Source: a virus. From it: a stretch of DNA of 64,000 nucleotides. The DNA lies in the IMG/VR virus record IMGVR_UViG_3300046330_000229, positions 1 to 64,000 of that record. The stretch is one strand, 5' to 3'. A program made the position numbers and the translations under genes. The notes below the pieces were generated by a model that saw only the letters and a list, made by a program, of their open reading frames with translations, was not told the DNA's origin and did not search any database. Of the stretch, positions 3,237-51,552 are shown piece after piece; the first letter of the stretch is position 1; each line of letters begins with the position of its first letter.

Positions 3237-3264
3237 GTTATACCTCTATATAATATATGTTAAA

Positions 3265-3674: not shown

Positions 3675-6600
3675 TTACCTTCTGTAAGCCCTGTTACTAG
3701 TGACTTCATATTCATAACTGATACCTAATATATTAAATTTCATAAAACAACTAGACTGGTAAACCCTAGCTCTAATATGACGACATCGCTGCTTTTGTCT
3801 AGGAATTAAAGTTCTTAGTGGGTAAGCTGTGCCATTACCGCCAAAAGCCGTATTACCAAACAAAGATCTACCAAAAGATCCGTCTCCGTCTAGTGTATAC
3901 TCCGTATTTTCAAAGTCTCCAGAAAGGTCCGAAGCATACCCTATAGTTAATTTATTAAGACTGTTTTGTTCAATCATAACAGATCCACCACTGACATGTT
4001 TTAGTAGAGAAGGGTCACCTAAAGTGTAAAACGACCAAATTATCTCAGACTTTATGCTCTTATAATGAACAAGGCTGCCGATGTAAAAGGGAGCTTTGTA
4101 TTGAATGTTTACAAAATTTTGAGAATAGTCAACATAGGTAATAATCATATCTAATTCTATCATACCTTCGGACTTAGTGTAATTAGAAAAGAACACTCCG
4201 TTAGAATTATTTAATGAATCAACTATAAGATTAAACTGAGTTTGCATGTCAAAATTAACACTAGAGTTATCGTAATAGTACTCTTCAGATAAAGTACCGT
4301 TGCCTGTGGATAATAAATCTACGACATCAGTTTTAAGTTGGAAAGAATTAGAAGTTACGTTTGTAATTCTATAAGTAACACCATCAACCAGTTCATTTGG
4401 AGCTATAGGAGCATTAGGTGCTGGTAGATTAACCGTATTAAAAGTTACAACATCACCATTAACAAATCCATGCTGTACAAAATTAATATAAGACGTGTTA
4501 AAATCTATATCCAATGCTAAATTAAAAGTGGCAACTTTAGCGCCTTTAGTTAATGTAGCTAATCCTATAGTTCCGCCCATTGGTTGCGTTAGAGCAAGAG
4601 GAGCTAGAGTTGTTAACTGGAAGCGATTAAGGGTATTATCTATGTTAGTTACTTGATAGTACTGTCCTGATGTTAAACCTGTAATCGGCGGCACACCAGC
4701 AGTATATTTAACCACTTCATTGTCATATAAATAATCGTTTAATCCTGGGTTGTATGTGATGTAATTAAGAGCAACGTTTACATCTGCTGGAGTTACAGCG
4801 ACGTTAACCTTGGACAAATCTTTAGTATTTAATTCTGTAACTAATTGAGATAGAGCGTTAATAAAGTCTGCTCCACCTACATCAGTCAATTTAGGAAATG
4901 TTTGACTAAAGTTAAGTTGTGGATCAAGTTTTAATCTTGAAACTAAATTATTATACTGAACAACAGTTAAATATTGCTCCTGCACCAAAGCGTCGCCTAT
5001 TTCCATATCAACAGAGTTATCAACGTACACTCGGTTTTGAGAAATACCCGCAGTAGCTCTGTCGTAAGATCTATCGGCGTAATCACGAGAAGTAAGCTTC
5101 TTTCGTTCTTGTTCCACAGCAGGAATGTCGTCAGTACCTAGATATAATTTATTTTGAGCACTAACAATACCACACACGGCTGATTTATCGAAAGATGTCC
5201 ATGTTTGAGTAAAAGTGTTGTATCTGTATGCAACTTTGGCTGTAACATTGTTTTCGGTTGTTACAACAAATATAAGATAAGATCTATCCGCTTCGTAACT
5301 AACACCAAACGTTGCTGTTGAAAAGTTCGTAAAATTCTCACTAGTAACACGGTTAAGTATGTTTTCAATAGGTCTAGAAATTACACCAACACCGGTCTCG
5401 GATATTGTAGACACACCTTGTGTTGTTAAACAGTATATCTGATTGTTCAATACAACAGCACTGTCGGGTGCTATAATTGTAGCTGAGTTATCAATTAAAT
5501 TTACAGTAAATGTCTGCTCATTTTCGCCAGTAAGACGATACACGCCTTCTTCTTTTAAAATGAATAAACTATCTTGCAAACCGATAATACGTTTGATCGC
5601 CTTATCTTGTGGACCAATTCTGAAAGCATTAACTGTAGGGACCGCTTCAGGTTGTTGTTCTTTAGAGAACATAAGCACATTGTTTCCAACATTATTAGTA
5701 GAACTTTGAGCAGAATCTAAGCTCGGATTAAAAGAGGGATTAGGAATAATAAATCCTGTACCTGTTATAACAAAAGGTGAATTAGAAAAGTTCTTCTCTT
5801 CTAAAAAGAATTGTCCAGGTAAACTAGTATCAGTAGATAGATAATAAGCATTCACTGCTGAAGACGGTGTAAATGTGATAGTTTTAACTAACGATTTAGC
5901 TGTATCTTCAATAGCAGCAGCAGGAGATGCGTAACTAGAAAGTCTAACAAAACCTAAAGCTGGATTTTCACCAAAACCATCTTGTGCTTTAAAAATACTA
6001 GTAAGAGAAGTACCTACTTGTGTAGCTGAAACAACGTCTGTTACGGCTCCACTTGTTGCTGTTGTAACAATTATTTCACTTGTTGGAATAGTAACAAAAC
6101 CATCTATACAACCGAAATCTCCAGTTAAATTAATAGCATCTTTGATCTTTTCTCTAACACTACTAGAGGTAGCTCCTGGAGAAAGGGCGGTCAAGTCTAT
6201 TTTAAATAGAACACGACCTGGAACAATAGGAGTAATATCTGCTATGTTTTTATTAAACCAAAAAGAATATTTAATTTTATCATCAATAGATGTTAAGTTG
6301 AAGTAGTCACCAGCAGTAACGTTGTCGTATTCTTTGTTAACTATATTAGTTATTTCAGGCTTACCAACAAAAAAGTATCTATTTATTTGTGAAGATTTAG
6401 TTACGGTAATATACGATCTGTACACAACGTAGTTTAATCCGAATAAAGCACTGTCAGCAGCTATCGTAACCGTTGTTGTTGTAATAGCTGTAACTTGATA
6501 CTGCCCGTCAACAGAAGTAGTATTAGCTAATGCTATATATTGACCCACAGTGACTCCATGACCTAATCCTAGTGTTATGGTTGCGGGATTACCCGAAGCT

Positions 6601-7844
6601 GCTGGAGCATCGATACCCGACTTAAATCCATCAAATCCAAGAAAAGTCATGTCTAATTTTTGTGTTGTTTTAGTATTAGCAAACCAAGCTCTGTTTTTAA
6701 ATTGACAAATGTCTTGTGATACTGGAGGACGACTATTGGCTTGTAATATTCCTTCGCCAGAAAATTCATTTGTGTAAAGTGGCACACCTGTGTCACGGAT
6801 GACTTCAGGAGTACTGTCTGTAACAGTAATTACAGTAGAGTAACCGTCATAAGGTACTTCTAAAACTAGACGCATCTCGTCGCCAGAACCGTTTACAACT
6901 TGAACATTAGTTCTATATACTTGATAAAAATAATCCGTAGTAATACCAGAAGGGACACCAAAAGATATATCAACATCAGCGTTAATCTGTGTTATGTTTT
7001 GAATTACAGCTCGTTCACTTGGAACACCTAATATAAGATTTTTATTAAAATCCTTAGTGCCCCATACTATTCGGTAAGCAACTTCAACATCATTGGCAGT
7101 AGGAGGGATAGGTCCCAAGAATCCACCAGATCCAGTGAAGTTTAAAGATAAATCCATACCTAGAGCTTGGATACCACCAGCATCAGATATAGCAAAATTA
7201 TTAAGCTGTGATACTTTTTTAATTCCAGTAGCCGTGGTCAAATACATGTTACTATTAAGCTCTATTGACTTAATACGTAAACGATCAACAACTTCATTAA
7301 CAGAATACTCACTAACTAAAGTAGCTCTACCGATACCTAGATTAATGGCAGGATTAGATAGAGAAGTAGCTATTTCAAACTCGTCTTTGTTTATTACATT
7401 TAATACAACAAATTCAGAAACTTCATTTATACCAGAAGGAAACGGGTAGAATTGTACACCAGACAAAGAGTAATCTCTTGTCTTAGTGAAAAATAATTTA
7501 GTACCAACAGCAAAACCATGGTCTACAATGTTAATATTAGTAGAAGGTGAAGCCAATTGAAAAAGTTTAGTACCCTTCATAATAGTAACATTTGCTGGAG
7601 TATTTAAATCCAAGAAACCTAAACTATTATCAAAATGAACAAACACTCTATCTTTATAGCTTAAAAGAGATTTAGCAAAATCAGGAAGGTCAGCAATTAC
7701 CCGCATACCGCGACGAGGCTCTAGTATATTGTCTCTATCTATAATAGTGTTAGAAGCAACGGTAAGGCTACCCTCTGGTGCGCTGGAGATGTAATTGGGA
7801 AAAGTCGAGAGACCTTTTGTTGTATTAATAGAGCTAGTAGCCAT
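3675..7844 (-). CDS. Tail nozzle / tail tubular protein B-like, with large beta-rich insertions
   Basis: 1389 aa; N-terminal GL..F..S.APEG.L..A.N..ID......PRRG pattern and beta-propeller-like blocks typical of podovirus stabilisation/nozzle proteins; downstream of the adaptor. Confidence 0.65.
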   Translation of the reverse strand: MATSSINTTKGLSTFPNYISSAPEGSLTVASNTIIDRDNILEPRRGMRVIADLPDFAKSLLSYKDRVFVHFDNSLGFLDLNTPANVTIMKGTKLFQLASPSTNINIVDHGFAVGTKLFFTKTRDYSLSGVQFYPFPSGINEVSEFVVLNVINKDEFEIATSLSNPAINLGIGRATLVSEYSVNEVVDRLRIKSIELNSNMYLTTATGIKKVSQLNNFAISDAGGIQALGMDLSLNFTGSGGFLGPIPPTANDVEVAYRIVWGTKDFNKNLILGVPSERAVIQNITQINADVDISFGVPSGITTDYFYQVYRTNVQVVNGSGDEMRLVLEVPYDGYSTVITVTDSTPEVIRDTGVPLYTNEFSGEGILQANSRPPVSQDICQFKNRAWFANTKTTQKLDMTFLGFDGFKSGIDAPAASGNPATITLGLGHGVTVGQYIALANTTSVDGQYQVTAITTTTVTIAADSALFGLNYVVYRSYITVTKSSQINRYFFVGKPEITNIVNKEYDNVTAGDYFNLTSIDDKIKYSFWFNKNIADITPIVPGRVLFKIDLTALSPGATSSSVREKIKDAINLTGDFGCIDGFVTIPTSEIIVTTATSGAVTDVVSATQVGTSLTSIFKAQDGFGENPALGFVRLSSYASPAAAIEDTAKSLVKTITFTPSSAVNAYYLSTDTSLPGQFFLEEKNFSNSPFVITGTGFIIPNPSFNPSLDSAQSSTNNVGNNVLMFSKEQQPEAVPTVNAFRIGPQDKAIKRIIGLQDSLFILKEEGVYRLTGENEQTFTVNLIDNSATIIAPDSAVVLNNQIYCLTTQGVSTISETGVGVISRPIENILNRVTSENFTNFSTATFGVSYEADRSYLIFVVTTENNVTAKVAYRYNTFTQTWTSFDKSAVCGIVSAQNKLYLGTDDIPAVEQERKKLTSRDYADRSYDRATAGISQNRVYVDNSVDMEIGDALVQEQYLTVVQYNNLVSRLKLDPQLNFSQTFPKLTDVGGADFINALSQLVTELNTKDLSKVNVAVTPADVNVALNYITYNPGLNDYLYDNEVVKYTAGVPPITGLTSGQYYQVTNIDNTLNRFQLTTLAPLALTQPMGGTIGLATLTKGAKVATFNLALDIDFNTSYINFVQHGFVNGDVVTFNTVNLPAPNAPIAPNELVDGVTYRITNVTSNSFQLKTDVVDLLSTGNGTLSEEYYYDNSSVNFDMQTQFNLIVDSLNNSNGVFFSNYTKSEGMIELDMIITYVDYSQNFVNIQYKAPFYIGSLVHYKSIKSEIIWSFYTLGDPSLLKHVSGGSVMIEQNSLNKLTIGYASDLSGDFENTEYTLDGDGSFGRSLFGNTAFGGNGTAYPLRTLIPRQKQRCRHIRARVYQSSCFMKFNILGISYEYEVTSNRAYRR

Positions 7845-7846
7845 GA

Positions 7847-9181
7847 CTATCTCCCTCGATAGATGTTGTTTTGTGTTCTCGTTATAAGCCCGTGTCTTGG
7901 TACAACCTTTAACGGAGAAGACTCTACGCGATTATCTATAAGACTTGCTGTCTTTGCTTCCATATCAGCAAGCTTAGCTGCTGCTGCTTGAAGACCCGTA
8001 TTGTCACCTAGAGACTCAAGACATCGCATTGCTGCACGTTGTGCTAGCATTGAGTGTAGTTCTATCGGTATTTGTGGTATAGTTGTTTCTTCGGGTAAAG
8101 CTATTACATCATTAATTTGTAATTTAGCTGGAATAGTAATAGTTCCAGCCTGATCAACTACCTGAATTACTGGTATAGTGTTAGTGATAGTAAAGTTATC
8201 GCCTACAGAAATACCAATACCGCCATTTTCGATAGCAAAACTATCCGAAGTTACTGCGGTCATGATTAGACGATTGTCCACGAAAGTACTATTGAATAGA
8301 TTAGATAAAGCGGTAATCACGTCAGCGTTAGAAGTGGCTGTTGTACAATTAACTCTGTAAATATTAGCATTAGGTACAATTGGTGCAGCAGAGGCAGTTA
8401 AGTCAATCCAGAAAACATTAAGTGTGTTTAGTCCGTTTGAATTATCTGTAACTGTAATATAAGAAGATGAAACTAAAGATGAAAATAAAGGTAAAGTTGA
8501 AGTTATCTTTTTAATAGTGCCGAATGTATAATTTAGGTTAGTGTCAGAAATATAGCCGTCTGGTGTAATTTCTTTAGCTACTAAACGGAAAGCTGATTTA
8601 CTTGATGTAATATCAAAATTCAACACATTTAAAAAACTCTCAGGCACTTTATCAACGGTAACTAGTCCGTTGTTTTTGTTAACATTAGTAACTACAGCAG
8701 CGTTGTTCTCGCTTACCATAGTGTTTGGTCGCATATAGTATGAAACAACAATAAAACCAGGAGCAGCCGAAACTGAACCAGATAAAACGATTTCATCGCC
8801 TTCTAAATAAAACGCACGTAATCCACCATTACCAATAAAACTATTGTAGTATGAATCTGAAATATCTTCTACAGCAATACGAGTCATTTCGTATTGATTT
8901 ACACCGTCAGAATATGAAACATCTCGTAATTTATTACCGATAGCACGACTAGGTATTTGGTAACGAGTAACGTTCTCTGATACAGGTATACGTTCTGTAA
9001 ATAGGAAATAGTCTTCATGATATTGCATGACATGCGGGACTACACCGAGATCCATTTCTTCATTAATAAAATAAAGAAAATCCTCTTCAAGAAAGGTATT
9101 TGTACTTTGTGGAATTGCGGCACGAAGTTTAATCGAATGGATTAACTTATTCGTACTTAACGTTTTATTATTGGTAGCCAT
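7847..9181 (-). CDS. Head-tail adaptor / tail tubular protein A-like, with insertion
   Basis: Helical N-terminus (LIHSIKLRAAIP...FINEE) and C-terminus (PQIPIELHSMLAQRAAMRCL) typical of adaptors; synteny. Confidence 0.6.
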   Translation of the reverse strand: MATNNKTLSTNKLIHSIKLRAAIPQSTNTFLEEDFLYFINEEMDLGVVPHVMQYHEDYFLFTERIPVSENVTRYQIPSRAIGNKLRDVSYSDGVNQYEMTRIAVEDISDSYYNSFIGNGGLRAFYLEGDEIVLSGSVSAAPGFIVVSYYMRPNTMVSENNAAVVTNVNKNNGLVTVDKVPESFLNVLNFDITSSKSAFRLVAKEITPDGYISDTNLNYTFGTIKKITSTLPLFSSLVSSSYITVTDNSNGLNTLNVFWIDLTASAAPIVPNANIYRVNCTTATSNADVITALSNLFNSTFVDNRLIMTAVTSDSFAIENGGIGISVGDNFTITNTIPVIQVVDQAGTITIPAKLQINDVIALPEETTIPQIPIELHSMLAQRAAMRCLESLGDNTGLQAAAAKLADMEAKTASLIDNRVESSPLKVVPRHGLITRTQNNIYRGR

Positions 9182-9525: not shown

Positions 9526-9557
9526 CGTGCGGTCTCCTATATATAATATATGTTAAA

Positions 9558-10085: not shown

Positions 10086-11327
10086 CTAGTACAATCTTCT
10101 GGCAGTTATACCAACTGTTAGACGAGCGTTAGCTGGTACAGTCATACCCATATAAGGCACAGCAAATACAGTAGTAGCTGAAGTTACGTTTACTATGATA
10201 GGCCCAACGTGCCCCATAGGATTAAATAGCGCAGATGATCCCAGGTAATATTGTACACCTAAAACACCTAAAACTATATTGTGAGAAATAATAGTTAAAT
10301 TTGGTGTTGCAGATAATAAAGTGGGAACCGTAGCATTGTCGGCACCGTTTGTACCAAAGATACCAAGACCTACTTCAGCGTATCCTGGACCAGTGCCATT
10401 ATTACCACCATCTACAGAAGCAAATAACTCCCAAGTACCTATAGGTAAAGTTATGGAATTACTAGTCATTTGAGAAAATACATTTGAAGCGGTTACAGCT
10501 TTAACGGCACTAGTATTGGTTACGATTACAGCTCCATCATTAGCGTAACTAACATCCCAAGGAGCGGCAGTAGTGTCCAAAGTACTTGTTTTTAATGTTA
10601 ACTGCATACTTGAATTTGGAGCCATAGCTTTAATTAAATTACCGCCGCTAGAGTTAACAGTTACAACTCCAGTACTTCTATTTTTAATCCACCACTGCAT
10701 ACCCGTTTGTATAGTGTTGTTAGCTGGCATAACTAAAGTTTGATTCGAAGTTCCGCTGAAAGTTTGTGTACCAAAGCTTGCGTTTGTTAACGTAGTCGTG
10801 ACACCAGAGGTCACCGTAGGGTTAATTTGAGGCGCAAAGTATCTGGCTACTAGCCCCGCCGTACCATTACGAGCGGCTACTGAAGATGCGTTGGCATTAG
10901 CTTGTGGAGTTATCCAAGTGGGCGCAGAACTTCCGTTAGCTTGTAAAATGTCACCATTATTACCTGAAGGAATACGAGACGGAGCACCTGCGGCAGCACC
11001 ATAGATCATATCGCCGATAGTAGTCATAGGATTTGTCATTTTAGCGTTTAATTGTGTTTGAATAGCAGAAGTTACTCCACTCAAGTACGCCAATTCTGTG
11101 TCGGTAGTCGCTGACACTGTAATAGTGCCCGAACCGTCAGAAGCTAAAGCTCTATTTGCTGTAAACGTAGGCAGTACTGAATCGTTAACCCACGCACCGT
11201 TAACGTATTTTTGAAAATTATTAACAGAAGTGTTATAAATAATCTCACCATTTTGTGGATTAGCTGGCTGACTAGATACAGCCGTTATAACTAACGACTG
11301 TTTTACTTTAAAGGAATTTTTTGACAT
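10086..11327 (-). CDS. Tail fibre / spike protein
   Basis: Fibre motifs: NGEIIYNT, TDTELAYLSGVTSAIQTQLN, NPMTTIGDMIY; T/S/G-rich. Confidence 0.75.
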   Translation of the reverse strand: MSKNSFKVKQSLVITAVSSQPANPQNGEIIYNTSVNNFQKYVNGAWVNDSVLPTFTANRALASDGSGTITVSATTDTELAYLSGVTSAIQTQLNAKMTNPMTTIGDMIYGAAAGAPSRIPSGNNGDILQANGSSAPTWITPQANANASSVAARNGTAGLVARYFAPQINPTVTSGVTTTLTNASFGTQTFSGTSNQTLVMPANNTIQTGMQWWIKNRSTGVVTVNSSGGNLIKAMAPNSSMQLTLKTSTLDTTAAPWDVSYANDGAVIVTNTSAVKAVTASNVFSQMTSNSITLPIGTWELFASVDGGNNGTGPGYAEVGLGIFGTNGADNATVPTLLSATPNLTIISHNIVLGVLGVQYYLGSSALFNPMGHVGPIIVNVTSATTVFAVPYMGMTVPANARLTVGITARRLY

Positions 11328-11364
11328 ATATCTTCATTCTCCAATATATATTTAATTTAGTTAA

Positions 11365-16159: not shown

Positions 16160-16224
16160 AGTACTCCTATATAATATATATGTTAAATCGGCACTATCTT
16201 TATATAGCTAAATACTCGAGGTTA

Positions 16225-16626: not shown

Positions 16627-16668
16627 ATTATCCTTGACTCCCTATATAATATATGTTATATTGTAAGA

Positions 16669-16896
16669 ATGGCACATAAAGGTAAATTTATAGGTGTGTA
16701 TACGTATAACAAACAGAAAAACAGATATATGGCATACTTAACTGAGGGCGAAACCGTCAAAATGTATTATGCTAGAGGTGAGGGTGTTACTATACATCTA
16801 AAAGTTTTAGAAAGTGGAACTTTGGTTACAACAAACTTAGATGTAGCAGTATTATACATGTTTGTTACAACGGGAGAGTTGTTTGATGCTGGATAA
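16669..16896 (+). CDS. Small paralog family A, member 1
   Basis: C-terminal LVTTNLDVAVLYMFVTTG. Confidence 0.6.
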   Translation: MAHKGKFIGVYTYNKQKNRYMAYLTEGETVKMYYARGEGVTIHLKVLESGTLVTTNLDVAVLYMFVTTGELFDAG

Positions 16897-28815: not shown

Positions 28816-28849
28816 ATATACACATCCTTATATTATATATGTTAAATTA

Positions 28850-40131: not shown

Positions 40132-42024
40132 ATGAGCGCGTACAATATACCAAAAGCTGTGTTAGAACGGGTACTTAGCGGATTAGGGGTGGCCCCTTCT
40201 GCAAATATTGCACGCCTTTTATGTGCTTTGGAATGTTACTATACAACCTCTTACGAGTCGGATTCTGAGTTATTTGATGAAGTGGCTACCCTCAATATTA
40301 AAGAAAGACTAAGAAAGTTCTACCCAACAAAGGACTATTCTCAGATTTACTATTACGAAGAAGCTCGGGTTACAAAACTTAACATAGAAAAGTTATTAGA
40401 TGAAGCAGCCGTATGATGCTATTGTCAAACAGGCCTTCACTGACTATATAGGAGTGGCTCCTATGTCTGCTATTTTAGCCTACATAGACGATTATTTAAT
40501 AGTTACATGGAAACATTTCGGCTGGGTTACTGTTGAAAATCCCACACCAAGCTTATATAAGGCAGCGTCGGCAGTGTCTAGACATATAGACATACACGGT
40601 ATAGAACATCGATATGACGCAACCAACGCTAAGTGGATAGCTTATATTAGACAGGAGCAGATATGACGTACGAATTGAATCATGAAGCCCGTCGAATAAT
40701 ACTATCTCTTATTGGAGTAGCTCCTATGGAAGTTATTAATTTACATTTATCAAATCTTGAAACTAGGACACCAGCACGAAGTTATCGATGGGCACTTATA
40801 CGTGAATATGACCATATTAGGATGTACCCAACTATTGATAATGTTTGTCTTTTAGGTGATGACGGCAGATGTTATTATTACAATAAATATCAAGAGTATA
40901 TGACTGTATGGGAAGCTACAATATGACAGTGAGACACCACATATCATCCTTTATCGGTATTGTACCCATGGAACTGATAACGAAGTCATTACTTCATTAC
41001 GGAGGGTGCCATTATGACATCGGGGCCGCGTGGGTGCTACATCCTAAAAATAAGACCGTTAAGCTCTATAGAGCAGCCAATAGCGATTTACACTTAAGTA
41101 CTGACGGTGAGATATACATAAGTGATAGATGGGCCTTATTTAGATTAAACAGGATTTCTTTATGAATAAAGATATAGGCTATCTAGTTGAAAACATTGGT
41201 ATAATACCTACAAAGGTTATTACATTAGCTATTAAAAAAGAACTACGGCGTTGTGACACAAATCGTGGACATTGGTCGGAAACAGCAGAACCGAGTACAT
41301 ATTGGCCCGTTATGTACTCAGAAGAGATATATTACATTGACGAACAAGGTGAGTTCTATTATACAGCATTTGATGGGTCATGGCAGATATGGAGAGAGTC
41401 TCGTGACTAAAGAAGAGTTTGTAGAACTAGTGGGTATTATGCCTTCAAACGAGCTATTACTGTGCTGGGAGCGTTCTACTGACGAACGGAATGAAAGACT
41501 ACGCACAGGCAGGTCTACCGGCTACGCGTGGACTGAAATGGACGGACTACCTATGTGTACGTTATATCGAGTTAATCGTAACTGGTTGTACGGATCTGAT
41601 GGTAATTGCTATATATTAGATGTATCAGAAGAGGTAGGCCTGGAAGTGTGGCATATATGGGAGAAAGTGTCATGACAATAGCTCAAACTATAATGCAAGG
41701 ACTGGGAATTATGCCTACAAAGGTTATAGCTAATCTATTAAAAGAATACAAGGGTGTTGGTGACTACAAAGTACACACCGTATTATGGAGGCGTGCTGGT
41801 AGTAAAAATAACAAACATAAATTCTTATGTAAAGGACATAGTACTAGTTATTACCACGATGTGTATACAAATGGTAAGAGATTGTATTTAGACACAACTG
41901 GAGGAATGTTCCTTATTCCTAATACGGAGAAACAAGCCTAATGACAATACGAGATGTGATAGCTTCCAGCATAGGGGTTATACCCGCCCACAATGTTAAA
42001 GAGTTATTAGCTTATAATGATTGA
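40132..42024 (+). other. Eight family B micro-paralog CDSs (40132, 40400, 40663, ~40923, 41162, ~41403, 41672, and a short 27-aa one at 41941)
   Basis: GLGVAP, YIGVAP, LIGVAP, FIGIVP, NIGIIP, LVGIMP, GLGIMP, SIGVIP near each N-terminus. Confidence 0.7.
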
Positions 42025-42110
42025 ACTGAGGTTATTAGTTATATAGTGCTTAGCGAGCTAGTGAGACTGTCACCACGGCCCATCGCGTATACACCTCCTA
42101 CCCCCCTATA

Positions 42111-42380
42111 TGCAAACTACATGCCAACTCTCCCCTTGCAAGAACTATACCAACGTATTGTTTTGATACATGGTATGATACTTGCACTCTTCAATATTCA
42201 TGCCTACTATATTTATATACATCCAGCATTGTATGTGCATTGACCATTGTCAGTGTCCTATAGACGTATAGCGACTCTATCTACAGAGGAGCTATATGTT
42301 TGTGTATGTATCTATTATCTTTTAACTATAGACTTATTACAGCGTGTAATGATGTTGTGCATTCTGGTATATATATTGCA
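42111..42380. promoter_or_regulatory. Cluster of sigma54 (-24/-12) boxes
   Basis: Minus strand: TGGCATGTAGTTTGCA (42111-42126) and TGGTATAGTTCTTGCA (42137-42152); plus strand: TGGTATGATACTTGCA (42171-42186) and TGGTATATATATTGCA (42365-42380); all GG-N10-GC. Confidence 0.75.
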
Positions 42381-42655
42381 GAGTGTGTATTCTTTATGTG
42401 TTATATATTCGATATGGTTGTGTTAGATCGTATATGTTTGTTATAAGGCGTGTTTGTGTGTCTATTCATTTATACCTACATATAACCACTATCTATCTAT
42501 ATCTTGTCAACCTTTATTTATTTTGGATACACCTCTAGATTATTAGGAGTCAATCCGTTTATTACAATGTATCTTTTGGATATCAAGGTTGTACATAAGG
42601 TACGATATACTTCAGATATTCGATACGATATTCTAATAATACGCATCTTATATAT

Positions 42656-42800
42656 ACTAGAGTAGTTGTCCGCCTGTCCCTTATTTACAGCTAGGGATTA
42701 GGTGCTCTCTGTTAGCTTAGTCCGATCTTAGCCTTGATTTTTACTCTTAGCCTCAAATAGTTCTTATCGTATTGTTTACGGTCTAGCTCTAGTTATCTTG
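42656..42800 (-). ncRNA. Candidate late-expressed structured RNA or leader
   Basis: Downstream of a late-promoter motif; closing stem ACUAGAGCUAG / CUACUCUAGU; internal UCCCU/AGGGA stem. Confidence 0.45.
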
Positions 42801-42814
42801 TCTTACTATATATG

Positions 42815-43024
42815 TTAACCGTGCTTAGTTACATGGATTATGTAATGTCTAGCTGCGGATAAAATATCTTTTGGATATCCTTTTTTATTATTTGAATGTT
42901 CAGCAATGTGCGGTGCGAGCTTTAAGCAAAATTCTATATCGTTTCTTAATAACGCTAACTCAAAAGCTTGATCTACATTAGTCTGTATTTTTCTATTCTT
43001 ATATCGTTTTCTTTTTACTGTCAT
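42815..43024 (-). CDS. Small basic hypothetical protein
   Basis: MTVKRKRYKNRK...; own TTGACA-17-TATAGT promoter (43062-43034). Confidence 0.5.
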   Translation of the reverse strand: MTVKRKRYKNRKIQTNVDQAFELALLRNDIEFCLKLAPHIAEHSNNKKGYPKDILSAARHYIIHVTKHG

Positions 43025-43058
43025 AATCTCATTACTATACACTATATTTTGTACACTG

Positions 43059-43086
43059 TCAAGTAAATAATCACTAATGCCGATAA
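43059..43086 (+). promoter_or_regulatory. sigma28 (FliA)-type promoter
   Basis: TCAAGTAA-N12-GCCGATAA. Confidence 0.7.
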
Positions 43087-43188
43087 GTGAATAACTACAT
43101 TATGTTAGCCGTTTTCTAATATCTTTATTTAAAATATATGCTTATAAGTTTTACACTGTCAGATAGCCGCTTGTGCTTTAAATTACAC

Positions 43189-43217
43189 TTGACACGGCAC
43201 TACGATTGCAATACACT
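43189..43217 (+). promoter_or_regulatory. Nested sigma70 and sigma54 promoter
   Basis: TTGACA-N17-TACACT, with CGGCACTACGATTGCA (43195-43210) occupying the spacer. Confidence 0.75.
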
Positions 43218-43254
43218 TAATCAAGATGCTCAAACATAACAAAAGGATAAAACA

Positions 43255-43710
43255 ATGAAATATTACTCAAGATCAAATATGTACAAGTCAGGTCAGAACT
43301 TAGTCCTAAACATGAATAACATGGTTGCAACGTCTTACGAATGGTATACATTAGCTAAGCAATTGAATAATGGCACAATGCTATTAAATATTTATAACTA
43401 TTCAAGTACAACGGTAAGACATTATTACAAGATGCGTAAACAGTTAACGAGCTTAGGTCTTGACATAATTGAGATTGAAGCGCCAAAAGGTCTACAAGAC
43501 TTAACTAGTGCTGTCAACTTATACAAGCGTTATATCACTGACTTGGAATCTGCCATTGATAAAAAGGGTAGCCGGTCGAGCACTAACGCAGTGCGTAGCG
43601 AGCTTATAAAGACATACAAGGAAAAAATACACTTTATTACTAGCATTCAATTTATGGAATCTAAACCCTCGCCAATTGAACGAGTTATGTATAACATGGA
43701 CGGTAAGTAA
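43255..43710 (+). CDS. Putative first early gene, hypothetical
   Basis: AAAGGA RBS; preceded by three promoter types; YSSTTVRH motif. Confidence 0.65.
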   Translation: MKYYSRSNMYKSGQNLVLNMNNMVATSYEWYTLAKQLNNGTMLLNIYNYSSTTVRHYYKMRKQLTSLGLDIIEIEAPKGLQDLTSAVNLYKRYITDLESAIDKKGSRSSTNAVRSELIKTYKEKIHFITSIQFMESKPSPIERVMYNMDGK

Positions 43711-43945
43711 CATGAGAAAACTATATAAATACAGTGAATTAGATCAGCGAGGTAAAGCTCGAGCCGCGCAATGTTATCAACACGGCTTAAAAGAGAACAA
43801 GTTCTTTTCTGATGATGACATACCGGATATATTAGTGTGCTACGAATTATGTCTCGACACTGACGAGGTGTCAGCTTATGATGTAAATGGTGAACTATTA
43901 GAATTAACTGAAGCTGAAGAAACAATATTTTTTAAGGACTAGGTT

Positions 43946-44434
43946 ATGAAACGACTAGCTTTAATTTTGATTGCAGCATTGCCTTTGTCACTGTCTTATA
44001 TTGATACACCGTCACAGCCTCGCAGTAACGAGTATGACATTATTCGAGAGCTTGTCTTGTCTCAATCTATGACACCGCATGACGAGGCTATTAAGGCCAT
44101 AGTTAAGGCCTCTAAAATATACAGCCTTGACAGTCGTGAGCTTACTGCCATTGCTGTCATTGAAAGTAGTTTCAATCCTAGAGTACGTACTATGACGAAT
44201 CATAATGGTACACAAGACGTAGGTATGTTTCAAATAAACACTATCAATCATGTTACTTGTAAAGGTCTAGATCTGTCAGACGTTAGCGACAATGCTTTAT
44301 GTGCTGCGAAGCTTTTATCTAAACACAAGGAAAGTCGTTCTGACTACTTAGGCGTTTATCATTCTAAGACACAAGATAAAAAAATGAAATATATTCAAAA
44401 AATAACTAAAGTACTTGCTAACACTAGCCGATAG
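43946..44434 (+). CDS. Secreted lytic transglycosylase (SLT family)
   Basis: Signal peptide; IAVIESSFNP (catalytic Glu), DVGMFQIN, GVYHS. Confidence 0.88.
   Translation: MKRLALILIAALPLSLSYIDTPSQPRSNEYDIIRELVLSQSMTPHDEAIKAIVKASKIYSLDSRELTAIAVIESSFNPRVRTMTNHNGTQDVGMFQINTINHVTCKGLDLSDVSDNALCAAKLLSKHKESRSDYLGVYHSKTQDKKMKYIQKITKVLANTSR
44407..44434 (+). promoter_or_regulatory. sigma28 (FliA)-type promoter
   Basis: TAAAGTAC-N12-GCCGATAG. Confidence 0.65.
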
Positions 44435-45129
44435 GTATAGTATAACAGTAACAAAGGACGCTTAAATGAAAAAAGACTTAGAATTAGAATATAACTCATT
44501 CAAATATGATACAGACCGAGGTGAAATGTTAGTCATTGACGTTTTAAATAATGATGGTAAATTCAGCGAGTACGCTCTTAATCGTCACACTGGACTAAAA
44601 ATCATATTAAGTCAATATGTATCATCTAGAGACTACAACGACATTATGATTATGGCTGAAAAATTTGAATATGAGTCGGGCGATAAAGATTATTTTGACA
44701 AACACGGATAATAGTAATATACTAATAAAAAAGGAATAAAAAATGGAATACTTACCACTAGCATTATTTTTAGCACTAGCGCCTATCTTGTGGATAGCAA
44801 TGATTTTAAATGAAGCTGATATCAAGCGACAAGATGATGAATTGAATAAAATCAATGGCTGGGCTGAATAATGATAAAACTACTTATATGCGGCGGCTTA
44901 TTATTTTACGGCCATTGGATCATTGCCTTAATAGTATTATTTTTTGTAACAATTGACTAATTAACAAAGGACTAGAAAATGAAATATGTAATTAAAGACA
45001 GAAACGATAAACAAGTGTTTGACGTAACATTCACCGACTTCAATCTTGCTGAAATATTTTTATGTGACACTTTAAAGCATAATTACGAGCGCACTAGATC
45101 ATGGTACTTTATCGTTGAGGCTGCCTAGT

Positions 45130-45510
45130 ATGACTCATATAACATACAGCGAGCAATATGGTCGAGAGGTAACGAGTCTTAAGCTTATTCCAAAGGGCAC
45201 TATCGTTGCCTTGTGTGAGCTTTTGGTCTTGTCTGAACAAGATACAAAAACGGTAGACAGTACAGATCTTAAGTATTACGTTTTTAAATATAACGAGACA
45301 CAAGATTGCTTAGTTATGGGCGAAGGTGAAATATTCAATCATAGTGATACGCCTAACACTGAATACAAACTTGTCCAGCATGAGGGCAGATCTAAAATGC
45401 AATTTACTGCACTAGATGATATTCCAGCCGGCACTCAACTATTTACGGACTACAATGCTGATATTAAGGTCAATACAAACGACTATGTACAAAAGAATAT
45501 GGTCGGATAG
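45130..45510 (+). CDS. SET-domain lysine methyltransferase
   Basis: IFNHSDTPN and FTALDDIPAGTQLFTDY SET signatures; ATG at 45130 after the stop of an upstream 49-aa ORF (44979-45128). Confidence 0.85.
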   Translation: MTHITYSEQYGREVTSLKLIPKGTIVALCELLVLSEQDTKTVDSTDLKYYVFKYNETQDCLVMGEGEIFNHSDTPNTEYKLVQHEGRSKMQFTALDDIPAGTQLFTDYNADIKVNTNDYVQKNMVG

Positions 45511-45800
45511 TCGTGTACAGTGTTATTATTTTTGCAATCTTTACAGGGGCTAGTATTGTTTTAGTCCCCTTGTGTCTTTTAGACGAGTCTTACAAGTGGG
45601 CTTTTTTGTTTTCCGTATCATTTTTAGTCAGTTTATTTATTACTTGCTTCGAGCTGTCTAGGCTCTAGTCATTCATACAAAAGTTCTACATAGTCATAAC
45701 GGCTTGAATTTATTAATGTTTTACTACTAAAGCCTTTTTTCGTATATAAGTTTTACACTCAAATATTTTTAGTTTTCAATGTTTTCAAGTACTTAGGCTA

Positions 45801-45816
45801 TGGCATACCGACTGCA
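45801..45816 (+). promoter_or_regulatory. sigma54 promoter with adjacent IHF-like site
   Basis: TGGCATACCGACTGCA; TTTCAAGTACTTA immediately upstream resembles IHF WATCAANNNNTTR; AAAGGA RBS and ORF 45853 downstream. Confidence 0.7.
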
Positions 45817-46665
45817 TATAGTATATGTATCAACTAAACAAAGGACTAAAAAATGCAAATAATTCAAATAAGTTTTATAAAAAATGGTGTGTGGTTAGCT
45901 TCACACTATACTACTAATAAACATGATATGTCGTTGACTCCTGATAAGTCGTTGATAAGTCTTTTTGGTACGCATTCATTACCGACTCCGTATCCTGACT
46001 ACACTTGCCCGCACGAGGTTGCTGAAATGATTCAGAATAAAAACCCACAAGCTATAGTTGAGGTTGTCTAATATGAGAAAATACGCTAATACAGAAAAAT
46101 CAAGTGACAATATCGAGACTGTAATCGGACTTAAAGAAGCTCTAGAGGAGTTCATGGACTCCGTAAAAGAAAATGTCAATCCTTTTAGTGACGCATTCAC
46201 TAATGAAGTGAATGAACTGCCTTGGGAGTCTTGCAGCGGCTTCATAGCACATAATCATAACAGGGGCGGTCTTGACTTTATATCAATCGAAAGTATTGAC
46301 CGACTTGTAGGCAGCGGCGAGCACATGGGATTGAAAATCTCAAACTGGGTCAATGAACAATACGACGAGACTTATAAAAACGTAGTTACTGAAAACCCTT
46401 CATTAGAAACTGACAGCAATGCGTTTTACGAGGCCTTAGACTCTAGTTTTTGTTCTGATTATGATACAGTAGCATTCCGTGTACGCGCTATGTATGAGGG
46501 CAGCGGTTTACTTGTGGTGCATGTTGGATATGACAAGGACGCACCTTATTTTCGATGGTCTTGTAAAGCGCATCAAGAGATTGAAATTAAATTCAAGACA
46601 ATTGCTGGACTTAAAAGAAAATTAAAGGCTTTAATAAAAAAGATTGAAGTTTAGTAAAATAAAAC

Positions 46666-46692
46666 TAAAGTATTTTAAAACGTAGCCGATAA
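46666..46692 (+). promoter_or_regulatory. sigma28 (FliA)-type promoter
   Basis: TAAAGTAT-N11-GCCGATAA, near-consensus, intergenic, followed by GAGG RBS and ATG at 46713. Confidence 0.8.
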
Positions 46693-48594
46693 GTATATCA
46701 AGAGGTAAAAAAATGAAAATTTCAAAAGAATTACAAACTGAATATAAAAGACTAACAAGACTCAATAAAGCTATGATTAAAGCCGTTTTAAATTTTAATG
46801 ATTTTGATTCTTATGTTTTAAGTATCAAGGATAGTCTAGAGCGTATTGAACAGATTAAAAAAGGAGTAAAATAATATGTATAAAATTGAGACAAACTTAA
46901 CTGAAACACCTTACGTCAATCAAATATGTGTAAGACTTAACGCTTTAAAAGGCATATACGGATTATGTCAACTAGAATCTTGTCTTGCTGTAATCCTAGC
47001 CGGTCAATCGTCTAAACAAGTAATTTTAGCAAGACATATACATAACCTTGTGTTAAGCTATGACAAGACAGATATAAACGACGCACTATATATCATGTGC
47101 TTATTACAAAATACACAAGAGGTTGCATAGTTATGTACAAAAGAAAAACACAAGACGAATATATTTTATTAGGTAACTACGGCTACGGTCATGGTTATGA
47201 GGAGTTAACTGCGGAAAGTAGTCGCATTGAAATTAGACAGCGCCTAAAAGAATATAAAGAAAACGACTCTTATGCTTTAGACTTTAAAATAATTAAAAAA
47301 CGCGTGAAAATTGAAACTAATGAGGTAACTTAACATGAAAACAGCATATGATTTTTTAATGAAACTGTACGATGATATGACTAATGACGAAAATAGAGAC
47401 GAGCAGCTTTATTCAGAATTAGAATCAACACTAGTCACACTTAAAAATGAAATGGACGGACTTTAATATGGAAAAACAATTTTATACAAAAACCGGTCAA
47501 CTAACAGACTACGCACTAGCGTGCGGATATATGCAGACCTTTGAAGCATTAGACGAGCGCCTTTGTTTATATAAAGAACACAATGCGTATCATGTAAAAA
47601 TGACAAGCAATGTATCAAGAGTCTGGGAGGTGTTCGACACGTTAACAGAGGCTAGACAGTTTTATAAAAAAGAATATCTAAAGCTTGAACTAGCAAGATT
47701 AAATTCAAGACTAGGCTTTACAGCAAATTGTGACTTGTTATATAAAAAGATTGATAAAATAGAAAAAACTTTAAAAGGAATGAACTAGTATGATGAAATA
47801 TCAAGTAGATATTGAATTTAGGTATACGACAAAAAATGATGACGACGAAACTGATTATCATTTTAAAACTTGTGTTATAGGCATATACAACACACTAGAC
47901 GATGCTGTACAAGCTGGAAACATTATGCTTGAGTCACAACTAGAGACTAGGTTTAAATTAAATGAACATTGGAACGTAAAGGAACGGTTTTCTAAAAATA
48001 ATGTCTTAATAAGTGAACTAGCATATTTAAGGACACCATTTCAATTTTTTGCTAGAATTAAGCCGTTACACTTTACAGATGTTGGTGAAGCTGTTGAAAA
48101 TATACTAGGACTTAAATAGTATGATGAAATATGCAATATACTTCTATGACAAAAAAGGTAACAATATAAAAATCATATCGAGACATAAAACTATTTCAAG
48201 CGCAATGAAAAAACGAGCAAAAGGCGGCTCTAGACTTGAGGATATTGCAGCATCTATGGTAGGTCTTGAATATGTATTTTTTAAAATAGACACAATGCAA
48301 GATTTATTAGAAAAACCTTATAACATAACTTATTTTAGAGGAGTGAAGTAATATGTCAAAATTGCAATGGAATATGCGGACTTCTGTCAGCGATCAGATT
48401 CCTTTTTTTGTTAACAACGACTATCTAGTGCCCTATATTATTCGTCTTAACTCAAACAATACATATACAGTATACGACACGCGTCGCTATGGCTCGCGTC
48501 AAGACTTTAATTTTTTTGGATACAGCGTTGTGTCTGTACATAAAAGTCTAGTTCAAGCTAAACGTAAGGTTAGCATTTTAAATAAAGGCTAGTC

Positions 48595-49041
48595 ATGTTT
48601 TACTATGTAACAAACACTATGCTATTTATATCAGGATTGATCTTGATATCACAAGGTTGCGCAAAAAAAGAGCCTGAAATGTTCGATCAATATCTTGTGA
48701 CTTTCCAAGTCGAGGCCATAAACAGAGGCATTGATATTCAGCGCATGAGACTGCCTACTATGCACATATACGACCGCTTTCCTGACAGTCTAGGCAATAC
48801 GCTAGGATATTGTAGGCGAGGGGACGGCGTGCCCTCTGTACATATAAGCTTGTATCAATGGAATAAAATGACAGCCGGCTGTAAAGAACGACATATTTTT
48901 CATGAACTAGGTCATTGCGTGCTGAACAAAGGTCATACAGAGGGCGGCTTTTCAATCATGACTACATATCAGCAATGGAATTGTTCATTTTACGAAAATA
49001 ATAGAACGGCGAGCCTAGATGATTTATTTGAGAGGAAATAG
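48595..49041 (+). CDS. Putative lipoprotein zinc metallopeptidase (zincin/matrixin-like)
   Basis: Lipobox-like SQGC; HELGHCVLNKGH and SIM Met-turn. Confidence 0.75.
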   Translation: MFYYVTNTMLFISGLILISQGCAKKEPEMFDQYLVTFQVEAINRGIDIQRMRLPTMHIYDRFPDSLGNTLGYCRRGDGVPSVHISLYQWNKMTAGCKERHIFHELGHCVLNKGHTEGGFSIMTTYQQWNCSFYENNRTASLDDLFERK

Positions 49042-49639
49042 ATAAGATGAAATTTAAAAATATAAATGAACTATATGACAGATACGAATATTTAAAAGTT
49101 ATGGCAGACAGAAAATCAGCGTGGAATAAGGAATCAATATCTTATGATCTTAATATTCAAAAACTAAGACAGTACGCTTTTGAGTTACGCTGTACACTTA
49201 AAGACTTAACACCTAGCGAGCAAGTTTTATTGGTCAACATAACAGAAAGTAATAGGTAGTATAATGAATCATATACAGTGGCTTTATTCGCAATTAAAAG
49301 ATCATGGTCAAGCGACGCAACGTGACTATCTGAATCATGTACCCGAGTCAATATCACGCAACGACGCTCTGCTATGGTTGTATAAACTAGAAAAGAAAAG
49401 ACTAGTTATGATTGACTATACTAAGAAAAATCCAGTGTTCTATCTACGCGAATACACTGGGGAATATTCAAATTAACGCGTAAAGGGGTCTTGCGGAATT
49501 TTAAATTTTGGGGTATACTTAACCATACCCTCGAAATAAAAAACTTTTTACCTCTAAGAGACTTTTATATTTTGAAAGTGAAAATCAAAGCCAGAAATTA
49601 CGAATTGACCCTAAGTCCCCCATATACAAAGGATGCAGC

Positions 49640-50662
49640 ATGAAAATAGTTAAGTGTAAAGAATCAGCGAAAAGCCACTACGGAAGATCGGTTTTGTTTT
49701 ACAATCCAACAAAAGGTTTGTATAGTTTTAATTCTGGTATAAAATTGGCCGTCTTGCAAGTAAACACAACCCAATTGATCAGTTTACGATCTGGAGAAGA
49801 TCAATACTTAGACCAAATAAGTAAAGAGTTAGGGGTAGACAGAAGCAATTTTATTATTGAAGAACAATTTGTTGAAGACGTGTCAGTTAATCACGCAGGT
49901 GAACACACTCATTTAGTTAGTGTAATTAAAACGGAGAACACTTCACTACCTTTTGGTACATATAAGCTTGTAACTATTAATCATACCGATTATTTGAAGC
50001 CTATTAAAATGGATAGTACTATTATTAAAGTTGGTGACAATCGTATTCACAACGAGGTGGCGGGATTCTTTAAAGATGCGCCAGTAGGACGCAGAAACAA
50101 AAAGGGTATCCTTGCTTATGGTAGGCCAGGCAACGGTAAGACCAGCGACATCATGCAGTTAGACGCATTAGCTAAGACTGAAGGGTTCTACGTTCTTATT
50201 CCACAAGATATGATTATTTTACAAGACTTTGCTGAAGTGTTTAAGAATAAAAATACTGTAGTCATTTTAGAAGAGACTACACAAATGCTGGAACGCGGGG
50301 CTTTAGAGAGCATTCTTAGCTTCCTTGACGGTGAGTATTCATGGGACAACTGTGTTACAGTGTGTACAACCAACTATCCTGATGACTTCCCTTCTAATAT
50401 TATCGATAGACCTGGACGCATTGATACGTTTATTGAGTATAAGAATCCAAGCAGCGAGGAAATTACAGCATTGGTACTGAAGTTCGGATTACCTGCTGAC
50501 GACGCATTACCGCTTCAAGGTAAAGACTTGTCCTTTGATTACGTGTCACATGTGTGTAGTATAGCTAAACAAACTGGTGAGCCTGTCAGCAAGGTTTACA
50601 ATGATATGAAAGATCGTCGTAAGTTCTTATCTGAAACATTCAAAGGGAAGATGGGTTTATAA
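49640..50662 (+). CDS. AAA+ ATPase
   Basis: ILAYGRPGNGKT, VILEE, CTTNYP, IIDRPGRID. Confidence 0.85.
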   Translation: MKIVKCKESAKSHYGRSVLFYNPTKGLYSFNSGIKLAVLQVNTTQLISLRSGEDQYLDQISKELGVDRSNFIIEEQFVEDVSVNHAGEHTHLVSVIKTENTSLPFGTYKLVTINHTDYLKPIKMDSTIIKVGDNRIHNEVAGFFKDAPVGRRNKKGILAYGRPGNGKTSDIMQLDALAKTEGFYVLIPQDMIILQDFAEVFKNKNTVVILEETTQMLERGALESILSFLDGEYSWDNCVTVCTTNYPDDFPSNIIDRPGRIDTFIEYKNPSSEEITALVLKFGLPADDALPLQGKDLSFDYVSHVCSIAKQTGEPVSKVYNDMKDRRKFLSETFKGKMGL

Positions 50663-50663
50663 T

Positions 50664-51005
50664 ATGAAGCTAACTGAAAAAGAACAACAAGAAGTGTCGG
50701 CTATTCTACGCAACACACAATCGGTATCACCTATCGTAACAAGTATGTACGACGAAACAATTGAATGCAATCCCGAGCTTAGACTATTACGTAAGAAGTT
50801 GTACAAGGCTATTGCGTTTAGTAAGCCAACGTATGGGAGACATACCAACCATTTCCGTAACGTTGACATGACCCTGGACTACATCTTTAACGATATGAAA
50901 TATTATGAACTGAGTAAGAAGTACAAAGTATGCCGGACTTTAGTTAGCGTTACAATAGCTAGAACTGTATCTGACTTAAAGAAAGAAATACTTGAGCACA
51001 TTTAA
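50664..51005 (+). CDS. Possible HTH DNA-binding protein
   Basis: C-terminal MKYYELSKKYKVCRTLVS resembles a sigma region 4-type HTH. Confidence 0.4.
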   Translation: MKLTEKEQQEVSAILRNTQSVSPIVTSMYDETIECNPELRLLRKKLYKAIAFSKPTYGRHTNHFRNVDMTLDYIFNDMKYYELSKKYKVCRTLVSVTIARTVSDLKKEILEHI

Positions 51006-51552
51006 TCTATACAAAATTATAGCTAGAACAAGTGCTAATCATCCTCTGATTAAAAAATTCATCAGCAAACATCACTATATCGGTACTCTTAGTCGCGGTA
51101 ATCAGTATGTGTATTGTTTGGGTATAGGTAACAAATTAGTAGGGGTGGCTATCTACGGTACTCCGGTTGGAACATATTGTAGTCAAAAATACGGAAACGT
51201 AATAGAACTTAAACGCTTCGCATTGTCTCCGGAATGTCCTAAGAACACAGGCTCGTGGTTTCTAGCTAAATGTCATAAGCTATTACCCAAAGGTCTGTCA
51301 GTTCTATCGTACTGTGATCCTAGCGCCGGACACGAAGGCACCCTATATCGTGCGGCTAACTTTATGTATCTAGGTAAACAAAAACACCCATCTTTTATGA
51401 TTAAAGTAAAAGGAGAGAAAAAACTATACCCAGCTAGTGTTATGTACAGATCAAAGAAAACAGGAGCTAGACTTAAACTATTGAAACAGCAAGGATTAGC
51501 CAAACAAGTTACAGCACCCTCTAAACACATATTCATATACAAAAGAACTTAG
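50992..51552 (+). CDS. Mom-family (GNAT-fold) DNA adenine modification enzyme
   Basis: KHHY, LVGVAIYG, IELKRF, NTGSWFL, SYCDP..GHEGTLYRAANF motifs. Confidence 0.8.
   Translation: MSTFNLYKIIARTSANHPLIKKFISKHHYIGTLSRGNQYVYCLGIGNKLVGVAIYGTPVGTYCSQKYGNVIELKRFALSPECPKNTGSWFLAKCHKLLPKGLSVLSYCDPSAGHEGTLYRAANFMYLGKQKHPSFMIKVKGEKKLYPASVMYRSKKTGARLKLLKQQGLAKQVTAPSKHIFIYKRT

Follow-up and report, generated by a model that had tools for sequence, protein, structure and literature searches.

Phage early promoters are generally thought to use a housekeeping sigma factor or a phage polymerase, and sigma-28 and sigma-54 are sigma factors of the motile state. No reports of phage early promoters of the sigma-28 class were found in the literature, and we know of none. 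This work concerns positions 43059–46692 of the window, by which is meant the whole 64,000-nucleotide (nt) stretch analysed, the first 64 kb of the 82,265-bp virus record IMGVR_UViG_3300046330_000229 (36 % G+C). Here, sites resembling promoters of sigma-28 (FliA), sigma-54 (RpoN) and sigma-70 stand at the head of a presumed early region. A first-pass annotation, made from the sequence alone, had proposed that these early genes are wired to three host sigma factors.

In Bdellovibrio bacteriovorus, the motif TTAAG-N16-CCGATA is found in 92 of 140 mapped attack-phase promoters and was assigned to FliA (Karunker et al., 2013, PMC3627812), in agreement with the premise of the first-pass annotation that FliA-type promoters dominate the Bdellovibrio attack phase. 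Promoters with the FliA motif show strong attack-phase expression (PMC12622784). At glmY, a sigma-54 promoter and a sigma-70 promoter overlap, and the latter is repressed while sigma-54 is bound (Reichenbach et al., 2009; Gopel et al., 2011, PMC3045617). Among phages, YuA is reported to use sigma-54 besides sigma-70 (a 2008 study, as cited in PMC10914365), and the Bdellovibrio phage phi1422 carries a sigma-54-type regulator (PMC3391216).

Sigma-28-like sites

The reading favoured here, which we hold to be somewhat better than an even bet, is that the stretch is the head of the early region and carries working promoters of three classes, all of which would be read by host RNA polymerase. It is from sequence that we infer the firing of the motifs, the sigma factor reading each, the host and the timing. 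The three sigma-28 sites described in the first-pass annotation are all present:

43059–43086, plus strand, sigma-28-like site 1, TCAAGT-N14-GCCGATAA, with a perfect −10
44407–44434, plus strand, sigma-28-like site 2, TAAAGT-N14-GCCGATAG, 31 nt before the ATG at 44466
46666–46692, plus strand, sigma-28-like site 3, TAAAGT-N13-GCCGATAA, 20 nt before the ATG at 46713

Sites 2 and 3 show zero to one mismatches to the FliA consensus (−35 TAAA(GTTT), −10 GCCGATAA, about 15 nt between) and fit both the Bdellovibrio attack-phase form and the enteric form; site 3 is a perfect E. coli-type FliA consensus (0 mismatches), and the −10 of site 2 overlaps the stop codon of a gene for an SLT-domain protein. 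Site 1 is the weakest of the three. Its −35 agrees with TAAAGT at five of six positions (four of five in the test of class membership) and it lies 169 nt before the ATG; its form, TCAAG-N16-CCGATA, matches that of the B. bacteriovorus attack-phase consensus.

For comparison, 19 related phage genomes were gathered via the portal protein, giving together with the window phage (G000) a set of 20 genomes and 1.52 Mb. The pattern T[TAC]AAG-N15-16-CCGATA had 12 matches in this set, and six of the 12 exact matches were situated at most 60 nt upstream of a start on the same strand, compared with a mean of 0.28 in sixty controls with permuted −35 words and of 0.27 in sixty with permuted −10 words (maximum 2). 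Placement upstream of genes and on the coding strand was thus commoner than chance, which argues that the sigma-28 boxes are not random, despite loose counts that remained at chance level. The first-pass annotation had named motif scans as a check, and these gave a divided answer, loose genome-wide counts being at chance and gene-proximal placement above it. Within the window there are nine copies of GCCGATA (3.5 expected), and a −35 partner was found only for the three copies in 43059–46692.

Sigma-28 boxes were found at the head of the early region in five genomes, namely the window phage and four relatives with 48–50 % portal identity to it: G006 (two exact and one weaker), G007 (one), G009 (two exact and one weaker) and the 82-kb contig M421 (one). 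In these four the boxes lie on the early-gene strand, just downstream of each genome's own cluster of sigma-54 boxes. When ten sites from four phages were aligned on the −10, cTAAAGTTTT and (G)CCGATAA were kept and the spacers varied, and conservation of the −35 and −10 blocks with divergence between them is what marks a sigma-type promoter. Each of the ten lies on the early-gene strand, most of them 20–35 nt before an ATG that has a ribosome-binding site. The M421 box is homologous to site 2 of the window phage, the leader ...TATAACAGTAACAAAGGA included, with a diverged spacer, and a G009 site, TTAAG-N15-CCGATA, fits the Bdellovibrio attack-phase form. The exact pattern was not found in the five nearest relatives, and the stretch homologous to site 1 is deleted in the closest of them, G001 (78 % portal identity). 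As G001 has no such site, the predicted sigma-28 boxes are a recurrent feature of the phage family and not a fixed trait.

G001 contains three copies of a different early-region element, AGTCTTAAGG…AGTAAAAYAAAGCCAGA (L045, positions 8827–8957, 10337–10470 and 11316–11363), and these occupy the places where the window phage has sigma-28 boxes.

Sigma-54-like boxes and the nested promoter

The sigma-70 promoter with a sigma-54 box inside its spacer and the sigma-54 site at 45801, both noted in the first-pass annotation, were recovered, together with an upstream repeat:

43189–43217, plus strand, sigma-70-type promoter with a nested sigma-54 box, TTGACA-N17-TACACT (10/12)
43195–43210, plus strand, sigma-54-type box in the spacer of the 43189 promoter, CGGCAC-N5-TTGCA, one mismatch to consensus
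45801–45816, plus strand, sigma-54-type box, TGGCAT-N5-CTGCA, two mismatches, GG-N10-GC intact
43143–43157, plus strand, 15-nt repeat copy 1 (TATAAGTTTTACACT), exact, about 45 nt upstream of the 43195 sigma-54-like box
45745–45759, plus strand, 15-nt repeat copy 2 (TATAAGTTTTACACT), exact, about 45 nt upstream of the 45801 sigma-54-like box

Both boxes fit TGGCAC-N5-TTGCW with its invariant GG-N10-GC. The 45801 box is directly followed by TATAGT (element to 45822) and stands 36 nt before the ATG at 45853; the gene that starts there has no sigma-70 match of 9/12 or better, which makes this box its best promoter candidate.

Across the 20 genomes the core GGC[AC]-N6-[TCA]TGCA had 114 matches, compared with 26.5 in controls (control maximum 59), and at 8–75 nt upstream of a gene start the figures were 12 and 1.07, respectively. 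Exact copies of TGGCAY-N5-TTGCA numbered 30 in ten relatives and one in the control. G001 has a box 27 nt before its first early gene (TGGCAC-N5-ATGCA) and a second one 35 nt before another early gene (TGGCCC-N5-CTGCA); in the four gene-proximal boxes of the window phage and G001, GG-N10-GC is kept and the five spacer bases vary. The occurrence of the same sites in distant relatives makes the sigma-28 and sigma-54 sites look selected rather than accidental.

The element of which the boxes at 43195 and 45801 are copies also occurs in clustered form, in both orientations, in the non-coding DNA immediately upstream (42111–42380), and most relatives have such a cluster. Beyond the sites named in the first-pass annotation, which had found none of these types in the middle or late regions, the absence of further sites holds for sigma-28, and for sigma-54 everywhere except in this non-coding cluster.

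In several relatives the sigma-54 box cluster is bounded on its left side by a run of C residues (…CCTACCCCCCTATA; 42085–42110 in the window, 5925–5948 in G001). The contigs of two relatives break inside the cluster, and the C-run is also found at the ends of G004 and G002. This region may lie near a physical genome end.

Each gene-proximal sigma-54 box is part of a module that starts with TATAAGTTTTACACT, exact in both copies of the window phage, or with a close variant, the variants of G001 lying at matching positions (L045, about 6590–6605 and 7605–7616). This 15-mer could be an activator site or an operator. It was also considered as a sigma-70 or sigma-28 promoter and rejected, there being no fitting −35 or −10 partner. 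The hexamer TACACT has five copies in 43025–43254, compared with about 0.09 expected. Four freshwater sequencing runs contained near-identical copies of the window, with a single-nucleotide polymorphism (43214 C>A) in the TACACT −10 and no variation in the sigma-28 or sigma-54 boxes, too little variation to inform footprinting.

Predicted use of the sites

If the favoured reading of three host-read promoter classes is correct, the host holoenzyme containing sigma-28 would start transcription on phage entry at 44407 and 46666, and perhaps, with less certainty, at 43059. The promoter at 46666 would drive about 5 kb of genes as far as a Mom-like gene, and the run of genes behind it (46713–51552) has no intergenic gap of more than 25 nt before 51553. 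The sigma-70 holoenzyme would use the 43189 promoter and a second one at 44695, whilst the sigma-54 holoenzyme would dock at 43195 and 45801 and fire once a host activator is active; docked at 43195, it may meanwhile hold down the overlapping sigma-70 promoter. The TATAAGTTTTACACT 15-mer and the five TACACT copies may mark further control. Expression of the first genes would in this way come to depend on a motile, non-growing state of the host, and it is plausible that the phage senses the life-cycle stage of its host, as the first-pass annotation had suggested.

Of the three-sigma wiring originally proposed, the motifs were upheld as real, and they proved to be placed non-randomly and to occur in relatives; the wiring did not prove to be a fixed trait of the family, and the part concerning integration host factor (IHF) fails, since the IHF-like sequence said to lie near 45801 does not match the IHF consensus WATCAANNNNTTR.

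Several observations weigh against the favoured reading. G001 and 14 other genomes of the family have no sigma-28 boxes at the stringency used. A loose sigma-28 scan of 13 genomes was at chance (30 matches, and 26 for the reversed pattern), as was the loose sigma-54 pattern with up to two mismatches (22 versus 21.7 expected). Site 1 is far from its gene and its −35 overlaps that of a leftward sigma-70-like promoter. A plain sigma-70 promoter at 68924, which has no −12 element, likewise begins with CTTGACACGGCA, and the first sigma-54 box may therefore have arisen in part as a by-product of −35 context. Within the cluster, many sigma-54 boxes form palindromes, an arrangement that is also compatible with a DNA-binding protein acting as a dimer. 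No activator-binding site was recognised for the sigma-54 boxes, and WATCAANNNNTTR, a common though dispensable companion of sigma-54 promoters, is absent from 43025–43254 and 45669–45852. Finally, among the public runs searched for the phage, no RNA run contains it.

Host

A scan of 185,579 species genomes with a portal profile yielded 13 loci, most of them 70–90-kb phage contigs binned into metagenome-assembled genomes (MAGs) of unrelated phyla. Only two were inside large host contigs, and both of these were in Bdellovibrionota: one in the complete chromosome of Bdellovibrio sp. HCB288 and the other in a 986-kb contig of a Pseudobdellovibrionaceae MAG (38 % G+C). Seven to eight structural genes of each integrated region are syntenic with their counterparts in the window phage, with identities of 27–43 % (portal 34–41 %). 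A third portal locus was found in a Bdellovibrionales MAG. Three genomes of the candidate clade encode RpoN and FliA (each a full match above the cut-off) and 10–14 enhancer-binding proteins. The genome-wide sigma-28 pattern was enriched in HCB288 (29 versus 8) and weakly so in the two MAGs, and the flagellin promoters of HCB288 gave only loose CCGAT-type matches. The best portal match among isolate phages was to a Silvanigrella aquatica phage, and the phage DNA polymerase was closest to that of a Flavobacterium phage (43 %). Host prediction by protein best hits, another of the checks named at the outset, accordingly gave Bdellovibrionota for the relatives of the portal and a Flavobacterium phage for the DNA polymerase. 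In 401 sampled Bdellovibrionota genomes, the portal profile found only two loci, both already known, and prophage relatives are therefore rare. Taken together, the sequence matches point to, and do not prove, a predatory Bdellovibrio-like host within the Bdellovibrionota.

The HCB288 prophage (L117–L121, chromosome about 2.668–2.684 Mb) is syntenic with the structural module of the window phage. Its borders carry two FliA-type motifs, each 8 nt ahead of a small minus-strand gene (local coordinates 42750 and 67033).

A more specific proposal, which we put forward tentatively and consider rather doubtful as a whole, is that of a tailed-phage family of predatory Bdellovibrionota that times its programme to the two-phase life of the predator. 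Early genes would fire via sigma-28 and sigma-54 in the swimming, non-growing attack-phase cell, the only stage that the phage could reach. Middle genes of the replication type would await sigma-70 promoters, active once the predator grows inside its prey, and late genes would follow from a phage-specific motif; the overlapping sigma-54/sigma-70 promoter would be the hand-over switch. Varon and Levisohn are said to have described in 1972 a Bdellovibrio phage whose multiplication coincides with growth of the predator inside its prey, which would suit a two-stage programme.

Alternatively, the promoters may work as proposed in an ordinary flagellated freshwater bacterium that is not a predator, a minority possibility with a substantial claim to attention. 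The logic would be that of a flagellum-dependent phage, in which the infectable cell is motile, so that sigma-28 (and sigma-54 in polar flagellates) is already active. Room for this is left by the binning of most matches in genome collections as whole phage contigs into MAGs of unrelated phyla, the Flavobacterium phage affinity of the DNA polymerase and the occurrence of a portal relative in only two of the 401 Bdellovibrionota genomes. It is countered by the integrated relatives, found only in Bdellovibrionota chromosomes, by the Silvanigrella phage as best portal match, and by the agreement of site 1 and the G009 site with TTAAG/TCAAG-N15-16-CCGATA, the Bdellovibrio form.

Other candidate readers of the sites

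A different view would accept the sigma-28 boxes as real promoters and have the TGGCAY-N5-TTGCA boxes, including those at 42111–42380, bind another protein, either a regulator or a packaging, replication or partition factor. The boxes at early genes would then act as operators over sigma-70-type −10 elements (TACACT, TATAGT), and a −10-like hexamer does directly follow each gene-proximal box. The cluster copies occur in both orientations, often as tail-to-tail palindromes, the contigs of two relatives that end inside the cluster suggest closeness to genome ends, and neither an IHF site nor a phage activator was found. Such a protein would, however, have to account for a match that extends over the whole sigma-54 consensus, keeps the GG-N10-GC spacing exactly and is free of mismatches in many copies, for gene-proximal copies that are all oriented toward the gene at 27–59 nt from the ATG, and for a gene at 45853 that has no comparable sigma-70 match. 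We regard this explanation as unlikely.

Searches for phage factors were made with several protein families. Sigma70_r2, Sigma70_r4 and Sigma70_r4_2 gave nothing in the phage proteins even at E≤1, and no Sigma54_activat domain was found in the phage, the single weak match being to a P-loop. A search of the phage for single-subunit RNA polymerase also gave nothing, but its control likewise gave no match, so that this result is uninformative. The phage encodes three AAA+ proteins, two of them Cdc48/YjoB-like and the third MoxR-like. A 1389-aa virion protein had no Pfam or PDB match, the sole lead being a crAss muzzle-like cluster. Among the 12 viral-contig relatives compared, no gene was found to co-occur with the sigma-28 boxes. 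With neither a sigma factor nor a single-subunit RNA polymerase nor a sigma-54 activator detected in the phage, host holoenzymes would be the likeliest and most economical readers of the early sites, and expression at time zero would depend on which of them are active.

The converse case, in which a divergent sigma factor or polymerase made by the phage or delivered with the virion reads the motifs, would make the genes delayed-early or middle rather than sensors of host state. In its favour, Pfam misses many phage sigma factors and virion polymerases, about 60 % of the phage genes are unannotated, and the motif in clear use at the late genes is specific to the phage and has no known reader. 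This case is nevertheless improbable: no Sigma70_r2, Sigma70_r4 or RNA_pol signal was obtained at the threshold above (the RNA polymerase control having failed), no gene is common solely to the genomes with sigma-28 boxes, the 1389-aa protein looks muzzle-like and not polymerase-like (a lead only), and the motifs equal a host consensus and not a private one.

Chance matches in AT-rich intergenic DNA, which would fit loose pattern counts equal to those of shuffles and sigma-70-like matches barely above them (53 versus 43), are already disfavoured and very improbable, given that gene-proximal matches exceed permuted-word controls for sigma-28 (6 versus 0.28) and sigma-54 (12 versus 1.07) and that the motifs recur at equivalent places in phages with only 45–50 % portal identity.

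Sigma-70 promoters, late signals and genome layout

Further promoter-like features and the main neighbouring genes are as follows, the first two promoters not having been included in the first-pass annotation:

44695–44723, plus strand, additional sigma-70-type promoter, TTGACA-N17-TATACT (11/12), before the gene at 44743
43034–43062, minus strand, leftward sigma-70-type promoter, TTGACA-N17-TATAGT (11/12)
3237–3264, 9526–9557, 16160–16224, 16627–16766 and 28816–28849, minus strand, late-gene motif TTTAACATATATTATATAGGAG
43255–44434, plus strand, first early operon, 151-aa and 76-aa ORFans and a 162-aa SLT-domain transglycosylase (Pfam SLT, E=3.6e-9)
45130–45510, plus strand, 126-aa SET-domain protein in the early region (Pfam SET, E=2.3e-14)

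The sigma-70 form (TTGACA, 16–18 nt, and a TATAAT-like hexamer with A2 and T6) was found at both 43189 and 44695. The leftward promoter precedes a minus-strand open reading frame (ORF) at 42815–43024 (69 aa), divergent from the early genes, and its −35 (TGTCAA on the plus strand) is kept in G001; together with the early genes it resembles a divergent control region. Middle genes have clean CTTGACA-N17-TAnnnT promoters, and in the late block TTTAACATATATTATATAGGAG, unaccompanied by a −35, immediately precedes the ribosome-binding sites of structural genes. Given these separate middle and late promoter types, the early, middle and late blocks use different signals, with sigma-28 and sigma-54 boxes occurring at the early end alone.

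Structural genes (terminase, portal, capsid-like protein, tail fibres and internal virion protein) are encoded on the minus strand, and genes for replication and nucleotide metabolism (primase-helicase, family A DNA polymerase, NrdAB, Erf-like protein and exonuclease) on the plus strand. Between two plus-strand blocks, about 1.3 kb (41942–43254) has no credible genes. A run of small ORFans begins at 43255, the sites under study occupying its head, and position and gene content suggest that the genes from 43255 are early. No close relatives of the early proteins were found in viral contigs or metagenome contigs, and a megablast search of the 40–50 kb region against phage records gave no match. 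No Rfam families were found within the window, and no tRNAs were found. The phage was detected only in freshwater metagenomes.

An uncalled 29-aa hydrophobic ORF (44871–44960, plus strand) overlaps the preceding stop codon (TAATG) and is probably a small membrane peptide of the early region. A 90-aa protein (L002, 12431–12703; genome 76431–76703) is conserved in seven of the 12 viral-contig relatives under comparison and matches no known family. A consensus sigma-70 promoter lies behind its gene, and the protein is a candidate for a small regulator, of late transcription for example.

Comparison with known systems

If the favoured reading holds, it would show that the opening step of a phage programme can be made conditional on a particular physiological state of the host. 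Should the host be a Bdellovibrio-like predator, the locus would offer a concrete, testable model for the infection of a cell that is exposed only while it is not growing, as well as ready-made attack-phase promoters for the engineering of these predators. The motifs are also a clue for host prediction in a widespread group of uncultured freshwater phages.

The attack-phase promoters of Bdellovibrio are similar to the phage sites in having a −35 of TAAAG/TTAAG and a −10 of (G)CCGATA(A), 15–16 nt apart, shortly upstream of genes. The phage sites differ from them in being phage-borne and in heading presumed early operons, and their FliA dependence is predicted from the motif. With glmY, the locus shares a −24/−12 box nested between the −35 and −10 of a sigma-70 promoter, and glmY is a direct precedent for the occlusion switch suggested in the first-pass annotation. 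That system is chromosomal, with mapped GlrR and IHF sites and a shared start, whereas in the phage it is the overlap of the elements that is seen. YuA, as far as it is described in the citing paper, is likewise a lytic phage without its own polymerase that has a sigma-54-like promoter besides sigma-70 ones. It belongs to an unrelated phage family, its promoters were experimentally tested, and that account reports neither a sigma-28 class nor a cluster of boxes. The early schemes of T7 (A1–A3), T4, lambda and N4-type phages resemble the present one in that promoters lie at the leading genome end by a long non-coding region and are read by the polymerase available at time zero, with separate middle and late classes following. 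In those phages the reader is a housekeeping sigma factor or a virion polymerase, whereas here alternative sigma factors tied to the state of the cell would act besides sigma-70.

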